Assembly (NCBI RefSeq): GCF_046105845.1
Contig: NZ_CP151004.1
Reading direction: 5' to 3' (one strand)
Source of the DNA: Escherichia coli
GTDB taxonomy: Bacteria; Pseudomonadota; Gammaproteobacteria; Enterobacterales; Enterobacteriaceae
Length of the DNA: 64,000 nt
Shown one piece after another: positions 49,676 to 52,132 of this stretch. Position numbers and translations under genes: made by a program. Numbering within the stretch: position 1 is the stretch's first letter; each line of letters opens with the position of its first letter. The notes under the pieces are model-generated. The model saw nothing but the letters and a program-made list of their open reading frames with translations, did no database searches and had not been told where the DNA came from.

Positions 49676-50839
49676 ATGTCTGTAATTAAGATGACCGATC
49701 TGGATCTTGCTGGGAAACGTGTATTTATCCGTGCGGATCTGAACGTACCAGTAAAAGACGGGAAAGTAACCAGCGACGCGCGTATCCGTGCTTCTCTGCC
49801 GACCATCGAACTGGCCCTGAAACAAGGCGCAAAAGTGATGGTAACTTCCCACCTGGGTCGTCCTACCGAAGGCGAGTACAACGAAGAATTCTCTCTGCTG
49901 CCGGTTGTTAACTACCTGAAAGACAAACTGTCTAACCCGGTTCGTTTGGTTAAAGATTACCTCGACGGCGTTGACGTTGCTGAAGGTGAACTGGTTGTTC
50001 TGGAAAACGTTCGCTTCAACAAAGGCGAGAAGAAAGACGACGAAACTCTGTCCAAAAAATACGCTGCACTGTGTGACGTGTTCGTAATGGACGCATTCGG
50101 TACTGCTCACCGCGCGCAGGCTTCTACTCACGGTATCGGTAAATTTGCTGATGTTGCGTGCGCAGGCCCGCTGCTGGCAGCTGAACTGGACGCGCTGGGT
50201 AAAGCACTGAAAGAACCTGCTCGCCCGATGGTGGCTATCGTTGGTGGTTCTAAAGTATCTACCAAACTGACCGTTCTGGACTCCCTGTCTAAAATCGCTG
50301 ACCAGCTGATTGTTGGTGGTGGTATCGCTAACACCTTTATCGCGGCACAAGGCCACGATGTGGGTAAATCTCTGTACGAAGCTGACCTGGTTGACGAAGC
50401 TAAACGTCTGCTGACCACCTGCAACATCCCGGTTCCGTCTGATGTTCGCGTAGCAACCGAGTTCTCTGAAACTGCACCGGCTACCCTGAAATCTGTTAAC
50501 GATGTGAAAGCTGACGAGCAGATCCTGGATATCGGTGATGCTTCCGCTCAGGAACTGGCTGAAATCCTGAAGAATGCGAAAACCATTCTGTGGAACGGTC
50601 CGGTTGGCGTGTTCGAATTCCCGAACTTCCGCAAAGGTACTGAAATCGTGGCTAACGCTATCGCAGACAGCGAAGCGTTCTCCATCGCTGGCGGCGGCGA
50701 CACTCTGGCAGCAATCGACCTGTTCGGCATTGCTGACAAAATCTCCTACATCTCCACTGGCGGCGGCGCATTCCTCGAATTCGTGGAAGGTAAAGTACTG
50801 CCTGCAGTAGCGATGCTCGAAGAGCGCGCTAAGAAGTAA
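49676..50839 (+). CDS. pgk: Phosphoglycerate kinase
   Basis: 387-aa product from [17 protein letters not shown]. Confidence 0.96.
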
Positions 50840-50937
50840 AAAATCACAGGGCAGGGAAACCTGCCCTTGTTGCAGCGCGCTTTTAAAGCACGCACTTTTT
50901 CATACTCTAAATAATTCGAGTTGCAGGAAGGCGACAA

Positions 50938-51042
50938 GAGAGTGAATCCCATGAGCTTACATAAGTAAGTGACTGGGGTGAGCGAACGCAGACGCAGCAC
51001 ATGCAACTTGAAGTATGACGAGTATAAGGCCCGACGATACAG
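50938..51042. repeat. ERIC (IRU) element
   Basis: Contains AAGTAAGTGACTGGGGTGAGCG (exact ERIC2 primer sequence) and GTGAATCCCATGAGCTTACAT (near reverse complement of ERIC1R); flanked by direct ACAAGAGA repeats; ends about 10 bp before the fbaA ATG. Confidence 0.8.
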
Positions 51043-51052
51043 GACAAGAGAC

Positions 51053-52132
51053 ATGTCTAAGATTTTTGATTTCGTAAAACCTGGCGTAATCACTGGTGAT
51101 GACGTACAGAAAGTTTTCCAGGTAGCAAAAGAAAACAACTTCGCACTGCCAGCAGTAAACTGCGTCGGTACTGACTCCATCAACGCCGTGCTGGAAACCG
51201 CTGCTAAAGTTAAAGCGCCGGTTATCGTTCAGTTCTCCAACGGTGGTGCTTCCTTTATCGCTGGTAAAGGCGTGAAATCTGACGTTCCGCAGGGTGCTGC
51301 TATCCTGGGCGCGATCTCTGGTGCGCATCACGTTCACCAGATGGCTGAACATTATGGTGTTCCGGTTATCCTGCACACCGACCACTGCGCGAAGAAACTG
51401 CTGCCGTGGATCGACGGTCTGCTGGACGCGGGTGAAAAACACTTCGCTGCTACCGGTAAGCCGCTGTTCTCTTCTCACATGATCGACCTGTCTGAAGAAT
51501 CTCTGCAAGAGAACATCGAAATCTGCTCTAAATACCTGGAGCGCATGTCCAAAATCGGCATGACTCTGGAAATCGAACTGGGTTGCACCGGTGGTGAAGA
51601 AGACGGCGTAGACAACAGCCACATGGACGCTTCTGCACTGTACACCCAGCCGGAAGACGTTGATTACGCATACACCGAGCTGAGCAAAATCAGCCCGCGT
51701 TTCACCATCGCAGCGTCCTTCGGTAACGTACACGGTGTTTACAAGCCGGGTAACGTGGTTCTGACTCCGACCATCCTGCGTGATTCTCAGGAATATGTTT
51801 CTAAGAAACACAACCTGCCGCACAACAGCCTGAACTTCGTATTCCACGGTGGTTCCGGTTCTACTGCTCAGGAAATCAAAGACTCCGTAAGCTACGGCGT
51901 AGTGAAAATGAACATCGATACCGATACCCAATGGGCAACCTGGGAAGGCGTTCTGAACTACTACAAAGCGAACGAAGCTTATCTGCAGGGTCAGCTGGGT
52001 AACCCGAAAGGCGAAGATCAGCCGAACAAGAAATACTACGATCCGCGCGTATGGCTGCGTGCCGGTCAGACTTCGATGATCGCTCGTCTGGAAAAAGCAT
52101 TCCAGGAACTGAACGCGATCGACGTTCTGTAA
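51053..52132 (+). CDS. fbaA: Class II fructose-bisphosphate aldolase
   Basis: 359-aa product from MSKIFDFVKPGVITGDD. Confidence 0.96.
   Translation: MSKIFDFVKPGVITGDDVQKVFQVAKENNFALPAVNCVGTDSINAVLETAAKVKAPVIVQFSNGGASFIAGKGVKSDVPQGAAILGAISGAHHVHQMAEHYGVPVILHTDHCAKKLLPWIDGLLDAGEKHFAATGKPLFSSHMIDLSEESLQENIEICSKYLERMSKIGMTLEIELGCTGGEEDGVDNSHMDASALYTQPEDVDYAYTELSKISPRFTIAASFGNVHGVYKPGNVVLTPTILRDSQEYVSKKHNLPHNSLNFVFHGGSGSTAQEIKDSVSYGVVKMNIDTDTQWATWEGVLNYYKANEAYLQGQLGNPKGEDQPNKKYYDPRVWLRAGQTSMIARLEKAFQELNAIDVL

Follow-up and report, generated by a model that had tools for sequence, protein, structure and literature searches.

The window, that is, the whole stretch of 64,000 nucleotides analysed here, comes from an Escherichia coli chromosome and carries the genes epd-pgk-fbaA-mscS in this order on the + strand. 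The stop codon of pgk (TAA, 50837-50839) and the start codon of fbaA (ATG, 51053) are separated by a spacer of 213 nt, and two sequenced strains match a 611-bp query around this spacer with 100% identity and K-12 derivatives with 99.0%. The spacer opens with two hairpins 3' of the pgk stop codon (50848..50900, + strand), recognized by their sequence, their fold and their conservation in genera that lack the repeat described below: the first one is GGGCAGGGAAACCTGCCC and the second one is GCGCGC...GCACGC, followed by CTTTTTC. Both hairpins (50848-50896) are kept in those genera. The second one, together with CTTTTTC, looks like a weak intrinsic terminator or attenuator, a role suggested by its sequence, and the repeat lies directly 3' of its T-run. 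A simple terminator scan flagged the first hairpin only, and on the minus strand (tail GTGATTTTTT).

The repeat is an ERIC (enterobacterial repetitive intergenic consensus, also called IRU; Sharples & Lloyd 1990; Hulton et al. 1991). It is a standard copy, homologous to the family over its whole length, and the complete element occupies 50901..51026 (+ strand, 126 bp), as delimited by conservation in a 35-copy alignment and by plasmid copies. Its core TAC...GTA corresponds to 50903-51024 and is flanked by CA (50901-50902) and TA (51025-51026). The K-12 copy is 127 bp long (NC_000913.3 3071271-3071397), the difference being due to one C that is absent from a CCCC run in the window. The left terminal inverted repeat TACTCTAAATAATTCGAGTTGCA (50903..50925, + strand) pairs with the right one in the minimum free energy (MFE) fold and in a consensus fold with compensatory changes, and the right terminal inverted repeat TGCAACTTGAAGTATGACGAGTA (51002..51024, + strand) is defined by these folds and by the 35-copy alignment. 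Between them lies the central conserved inverted repeat (50942..50984, + strand), made up of an imperfect complement of the ERIC1R primer (50942-50962) and an exact ERIC2 primer site. In fact, the 22 nt of ERIC2 (AAGTAAGTGACTGGGGTGAGCG) occur a single time in the window, on the + strand at 50963-50984, and in 0/100 shuffles, as the sequence-only reading of this DNA had stated. ERIC1R had no match within 3 mismatches in the window because the site has lost one C and carries a G>T in this copy; it is intact in K-12 and most strains. The ORF list of the window contains no transposase-size ORF inside the element.

The limits of the element were established by comparison with independent copies. 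A metagenome scan with the ERIC2 22-mer gave 120 stretches, representing 63 distinct contexts after deduplication of their flanks, and the window copy was aligned with 34 canonical-length copies from unrelated flanks (35 in total). Mean column identity in this alignment was 89%, and column conservation was 0.8-1.0 inside TAC(C/T)CTAAATAATTCGAG...GAAGTATGACG(A/G)GTA and 0.3-0.5 immediately outside, with TA on both sides in most copies. Furthermore, plasmid-borne copies align to limits equal to window 50900/50902-51026/51027, and the window copy is separated by just 3 positions from E. coli copies at unrelated loci, such as L082. The sequence-only reading would have given up its ERIC call if the similarity had been confined to the 22-bp primer match; the alignment revealed homology over the full length and the call stands. 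Its interval (50938-51042) has to be replaced, as similarity to the independent copies spans 50901/50903-51026: the former interval leaves out the first ~37 bp, and with them all of the left terminal inverted repeat, and takes in 16 bp of a leader that is not ERIC.

Like the E. coli subfamily of ERICs, the window copy is homologous over the full 126/127 bp, has the ERIC2 site in a central inverted repeat and a long hairpin closed by terminal repeats, was inserted at TA and lies between genes in what is probably a common transcript. The differences are not essential: a locus-specific C>A, a left CA in place of TA and, in the window strain only, the 1-nt deletion and G>T of the ERIC1R site. The RefSeq annotation of K-12 lists no repeat feature at the site, which neither confirms nor denies the element. 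Wilson & Sharp reportedly catalogued the K-12 ERICs in 2006, and the pgk-fbaA copy is almost certainly already known, in kind and in instance. In the literature the family is described as 127-bp elements with terminal inverted repeats that duplicate TA, form hairpins and are co-transcribed (PMC2229807, PMC3184786, PMC2267715), and 19-21 copies have been catalogued in K-12 (PMC2267715). An Rfam scan of the spacer, against a database that has no ERIC family, gave a single sub-threshold match to RF02818 (V_AS5, Vibrio RNA AS5), which is weak but extends over the full length (50900-51018, 36.2 bits, E = 6e-6) and falls far below the gathering threshold of 96 bits, so that the element does not belong to that family. 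This match presumably comes from a Vibrio ERIC copy that overlaps that RNA, and V. cholerae carries ~80-100 ERICs (PMC2267715).

The word ACAAGAGA had been noticed on both sides of the former interval and likened to a target-site duplication. Two copies of the word do exist, at 50934-50941 and 51044-51051, and the common word is actually 9 nt long (GACAAGAGA), but they do not bound the element. The left copy (50934..50941, + strand) is 33 bp inside it (element positions ~34-41), in a predicted internal loop, where sister E. coli-type copies read ACAAGCGA, ACAAGTGA or ATAAGAGA, and it is created by the locus-specific C>A of the window ERIC. The right copy begins 17 nt past the element end, within the native fbaA leader (51027..51052, + strand), a non-ERIC segment that is conserved in ERIC-less genera and invariant in 10 E. 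coli strains. The Shine-Dalgarno AGGA is at 51041-51044, and the right ACAAGAGA overlaps its last base and the stretch that precedes the ATG. ERIC-less Citrobacter, Kluyvera, Enterobacter, Klebsiella and Salmonella have kept the leader AGGCC(C)GA(C/A)GATACAGGAC; in the ERIC-less genera 6-9 nt separate GATACAGGAC from the ATG, and at the position of the right copy Salmonella reads ACAACGAA (in a longer reading, GGACAACGAAACATG). Because genera without ERIC keep this leader as far as the Shine-Dalgarno motif and with it, the right ACAAGAGA is native to it; that it matches the left one is coincidental and was favoured by a single substitution in the ERIC. A shared word of at least 9 nt between the 126-bp element and the 26-nt leader was found in 0.5-1.7% of controls, and one of at least 8 nt in 3-6%, so that the match is mildly unusual by chance; it was, moreover, chosen post hoc, and the sequences compared explain it away. 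The idea that the Escherichia-specific leader hexamer AAGAGA was templated from the ERIC was also considered; the Salmonella ACAACGAA suggests ordinary divergence.

These data bear directly on the earlier model, in which a ~105-bp ERIC (50938-51042) abuts the fbaA start and its insertion doubled an 8-bp target, ACAAGAGA. The existence of both words and the uncommon shared 9-mer speak for it. Against it, homology to the 34 copies begins 33 bp before the left repeat and ends 17 bp short of the right one, the former repeat is an internal ERIC position and the latter belongs to the leader, the empty sites described below indicate that ~126 bp were gained at a TA, and the documented ERIC duplication is TA (PMC2229807). 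In addition, no duplication pattern of the ACAAGAGA type was found in the empty sites of ERIC-less genera, and the right end of the element is 26 nt from the ATG and not ~10 bp. We consequently give this model practically no credence.

Some further features of the leader were observed. Its motif CGA(A/C)GATACAGGAC (window 51027-51045; L215 372-391; also in L008, L009 and L011) is conserved across Enterobacteriaceae, and a tandem duplication of GATACA (GATACAGATACAGGAC) is found in the leader of Klebsiella, Phytobacter, Pluralibacter gergoviae and others. The segment AUACAGGA resembles what we take to be a CsrA-type GGA site.

The comparison with genomes that lack the element places its insertion. 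In a survey of 80 species and a few extras, the pgk-fbaA spacer measured 83-109 nt in most of the ERIC-less Enterobacteriaceae sampled (88 nt in Citrobacter werkmanii, 97 nt in Klebsiella pneumoniae, 101 nt in Salmonella Senftenberg, and 87 nt in Kluyvera and Pluralibacter, which equals 213 minus 126), and 66 nt in Pseudescherichia vulneris and Escherichia sp. ESNIH1. An ERIC would not fit into the matched span of K. aerogenes. Related genomes thus differ in the presence of the element, and in length by ~126 bp, which is a sign of past mobility; Salmonella, Klebsiella, C. werkmanii, Kluyvera, E. cloacae and others are without it at this site. At the junction a single TA is found in Phytobacter (TTTTT-TA-AGGCCCGACG) and in E. 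cloacae and Pseudocitrobacter (TTTTC-TA-ACGGCCGAAG); the E. coli counterpart at exactly this place is CA-[ERIC]-TA. ERIC insertion is known to duplicate TA (PMC2229807 Table 1; PMC3184786). Judging from these aligned junctions, the true insertion site is the TA dinucleotide, and the CA of the left flank is read as a degenerate TA, the TA duplication being imperfect at the window copy.

Within E. coli the element is fixed. The full 611-bp region was recovered in one piece, with at least 98.5% identity, from 5414 of the 5426 complete E. coli genomes, so that at least this number carry the ERIC, and one low-coverage genome that was inspected also has it, its record beginning at the right edge of the element. 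When the deleted spacer of Escherichia albertii was used as query, each listed E. coli genome gave two pieces spanning ~332-333 nt; all of these listed genomes are full, and no E. coli with an empty or deleted site was found among them. Three E. albertii strains, with copies such as L073 1359-1500 and L213 259-400, have the same junctions and lack 72 alignment columns of the core (window ~50919-50990). This deletion removes the whole central core and both ERIC-PCR primer sites and spares both terminal inverted repeats, which are predicted to form a stem of -11.9 kcal/mol. As E. albertii has the same junctions and the Salmonella site is empty, the insertion is dated after the Salmonella split and before the split between E. 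coli and E. albertii. The comparison across Escherichia that the sequence-only reading had proposed thus supports the presence of an ERIC at this site, core-deleted in the three E. albertii strains.

Two peculiarities of database records were seen in these searches. The E. coli chromosome record NZ_OZ369284.1 (L202, L203) opens exactly at the right edge of the ERIC. Several PLSDB "plasmids" that carry pgk-fbaA are chromosomes or fragments of them, with records that include NZ_CP077332.1 and NZ_LN868944.1; among them are a 157-kb linear Lelliottia record, a 728-kb Salmonella record and several E. coli records of 4.8-4.9 Mb.

Ten E. coli strains, taken from across the identity range, give an indication of the constraint acting on the spacer. 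Variable positions amounted to 7/126 in the ERIC, all of them between 50947 and 51019, to 3/61 in the left spacer, to 0/26 in the leader and to 8/398 in the flanking coding sequence. As coding changes are expected to be mostly synonymous, the ERIC interior therefore varies at about the neutral rate. This neutral-like interior, together with the core deletion of E. albertii and the fact that most genera do without the element, argues that the ERIC is not required. The left arm (50901-50946) is invariant in this small 10-strain sample and E. albertii keeps the terminal repeats, which may reflect selection for, or a role of, the basal stem. Some of the variable positions of the E. coli strains fall in primer sites (50947, 50952, 50965 and 50973, with equivalents in L204-L212 and L202): strains 536, A33, STEC299 and Esc12 read GTGATTGGGG in place of GTGACTGGGG, and the length of the C-run also varies. 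Such polymorphism of the ERIC1R and ERIC2 sites at a fixed locus would alter priming in ERIC-PCR.

With regard to transcription, a promoter scan of 50700-51200 found no sigma-70-like site. Olvera et al. 2009 (PMC2759082) obtained neither a 5'RACE product nor a transcription start from the 214-nt pgk-fbaA spacer, which led them to conclude that fbaA relies on upstream promoters, and pgk and fbaA have been described as co-transcribed (PMC2396614, citing Bardey 2005). With no detectable promoter in the spacer, the ERIC would therefore be transcribed as part of the pgk-fbaA message, and the literature and the promoter scan together point to an intercistronic RNA and not to a classical 5' UTR. The statement that the element forms most of the fbaA 5' UTR has to be reworded in consequence: it makes up 126 of the 213 nt of an intercistronic spacer. 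The same data bear on the possibility that the ERIC provides fbaA with an internal promoter, an in-frame N-terminal extension or a mini-ORF (GTG 50969, AUG 50950). ERICs have been noted to contain ORFs (PMC2229807) and an ORF starting at GTG 50969 is in frame with fbaA; however, neither a sigma-70-like site nor a 5'RACE start was found in the region, FbaA starts with MSKIF in every genus, with a Shine-Dalgarno 8 nt upstream, and AUG 50950 is exclusive to the variant of the window strain among the strains examined. We regard this possibility as very improbable, and the in-frame GTG ORF was dismissed as a mechanical ORF. The variant of the window strain at 50948-50968 (CCCATGAGC vs CCCCAGGAGC) creates the AUG and a 5-codon mini-ORF (MSLHK), located 11 nt after the purine-rich AAGAGAG; none of the other strains examined has this mini-ORF, which probably means nothing. 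Separately, one member of the FbaA cluster, P0007 (399 aa, JGI), is called 40 residues longer than normal, and an upstream start through an ERIC-containing spacer may explain its length.

The folding analysis describes what the ERIC could do as RNA. Folded alone, the element forms a single long imperfect hairpin with an MFE of -42.9 kcal/mol (z = -5.99 vs dinucleotide shuffles), and the same hairpin is predicted unchanged when 254 nt are folded together, the two pgk 3' hairpins and the fbaA start included. The folding check that had been proposed thus yields an autonomous predicted hairpin, with the Shine-Dalgarno leader outside it. The consensus structure of 30 copies contains 32 pairs, 6 of them with compensatory double changes, for instance at columns 7/124 (CG 19, UA 7, AU 3) and 14/117 (AU 27, CG 3); no variation could appear in its apical part, since the ERIC2 22-mer served to collect every copy. 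Covariation in the terminal repeats is equally expected from symmetric recognition of the DNA by a transposase, so that it leaves an RNA function unproven.

The sequence-only reading had suggested an effect of the ERIC on mRNA stability or translation of fbaA. As for translation, the partition function gives a mean unpaired probability over -20..+12 of 0.58 with the ERIC and 0.57 without it, the predicted unpaired probabilities of the Shine-Dalgarno and the AUG are the same in both cases, and a small native hairpin involving them (GGACA/UGUCU) is also predicted with and without the element. The base of the ERIC hairpin is at -27 relative to the A of the ATG, which we judge to be just outside the usual 30S footprint. 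Occlusion of the Shine-Dalgarno by the ERIC was ruled out by this comparison with and without the element, and the predictions thus go against an effect on fbaA translation. An effect on mRNA stability is possible.

This last possibility is at the centre of the main rival to a passive element, a reading drawn by analogy with the effects of Yersinia ERICs, in which the hairpin would be a regulatory RNA module that sets the pgk:fbaA expression ratio. It could act through RNase III on the ~19-bp segmented basal stem or through RNase E at the AU-rich left arm, or alternatively by shielding the 5' end of the fbaA segment or the 3' end of the pgk segment. Like the Yersinia regulatory ERICs, the window copy belongs to this repeat family, lies between two genes of an operon and has terminal-repeat hairpins. 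De Gregorio et al., writing in 2005 (J Bacteriol 187:7945), are said to have described the Yersinia ERICs as mRNA-stability elements; these copies reportedly adjoin or overlap the stop codon, in the "B" orientation, and ribosomes unmask an RNase E site in them. The window copy, in contrast with that reported position at or next to stop codons, begins 63 nt past the pgk stop codon, behind two hairpins. Reviews also mention ribosome-induced unmasking of an RNase E site in Yersinia ERICs (PMC2229807, PMC10969869), and co-transcribed Yersinia ERICs shift the balance between upstream and downstream transcripts, depending on their orientation (PMC2229807, PMC3184786, PMC10969869), in favor of a module of this kind. 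So do the stability, autonomy and covariation of the predicted hairpin, the fixation of the element in E. coli, the terminal-repeat stem kept in E. albertii and the recurrence of the same site and orientation in other lineages (see below). However, the interior varies at a roughly neutral rate and E. albertii has lost its 72 core alignment columns, most Enterobacteriaceae express this essential operon without an ERIC, and processing data for the pgk-fbaA spacer were not found in the accessible literature. In fact, searches of that literature for ERIC together with pgk and fbaA, for RNase III together with fbaA, and for IRU/fda returned nothing relevant, and the RNase E papers found treat the epd-pgk junction only. 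We therefore consider a regulatory module unlikely, although it is the alternative to be taken most seriously. REP/BIME and the Neisseria Correia elements (NEMIS) are likewise intergenic repeats co-transcribed in operons, and REP hairpins can stabilise the upstream mRNA while Correia hairpins can be cut by RNase III; their sequences are unrelated to the window ERIC, which can be likened to them by analogy only.

Taken together, the observations are best accounted for by an old, fixed ERIC MITE that is co-transcribed, self-folding and a near-neutral passenger, a reading that includes the identity of the element and that we hold with good confidence. An ERIC would have inserted at a TA that lies ~29 nt before the fbaA start and directly after the conserved pgk hairpins, in the Escherichia lineage, after the Salmonella split and before that of E. 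coli and E. albertii, and would now be an immobile and fixed passenger of the pgk-fbaA intercistronic spacer. In the pgk-fbaA message it is predicted to fold on itself into a long imperfect hairpin closed by the terminal inverted repeats, leaving outside the 26-nt native leader with its Shine-Dalgarno; both this folding in vivo and the absence of effect are model predictions. At most, the hairpin would be a modest RNA-stability or processing module that does not act on the initiation of fbaA translation, possibly as a barrier to 3' exonucleases for pgk or as a place where a double-strand or RNase E-type cut would separate pgk from fbaA. The essential glycolytic operon is seen to tolerate a 126-bp structured insert just outside the fbaA ribosome-binding window. 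The result also corrects the coordinates of this ERIC and removes a spurious claim of target-site duplication.

The occupancy of the same site in other lineages could hint at an orientation-specific benefit and would then speak against the neutrality of the passenger. At the pgk-fbaA site, and in the same orientation, an ERIC is found in Lelliottia amnigena (L216 253-377) and in "Citrobacter sp. FP75" (L003 1349-1474), both of them of another subfamily (TACAC...GTGTA, TACACAAAATC...), whereas the Escherichia copy belongs to the TACTC subfamily. A soil MAG (L013 1351-1471) has a divergent ERIC-like copy with eroded ends, also at this site and in this orientation, and the genera between the ERIC-bearing ones are empty there. 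The three copies of L216, L003 and L013 share a TTCAATT left flank and may derive from one event; Escherichia and that group represent at least two independent gains at one TA. It is possible, though we find it rather doubtful, that the TA 3' of the terminator-like pgk hairpin is a recurrent and orientation-specific landing site for ERICs. If it were, this would imply either that the mobilising transposase chooses its target by structure or that an orientation-specific RNA function in the pgk-fbaA message, such as the tuning of the Pgk:FbaA ratio, has been selected repeatedly. Should the recurrent occupancy be non-random, the locus would be a tractable one in which to study ERIC target choice or the effects of ERICs on operon mRNAs.

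Other ERIC loci came up in the same material. Hafnia paralvei (L017 2781-2908, - strand) has a full, oppositely oriented ERIC ~200 nt beyond the fbaA stop codon. In three metagenome contigs (L104, L106 and L175) either the pgk-side or the fbaA-side flank of the pgk-fbaA ERIC is linked across the repeat to a flank of another ERIC locus; these are probably assembly chimeras at the repeat, with recombination between ERIC copies as the less probable alternative. Long ERIC variants have been described in the literature. Some of the copies recovered here (L195, L087, L095, L102, L103, L112, L127 and L172) carry an extra structured insert of ~80 bp after ...GGGGTGAGCGA (CAAATCCGCATGGAGCGGATTTGAACGC...GGCCCATGGATGGGCCGA...), and L158 and L195 represent the same locus without and with this insert, respectively, that is, a presence/absence polymorphism of a nested element.
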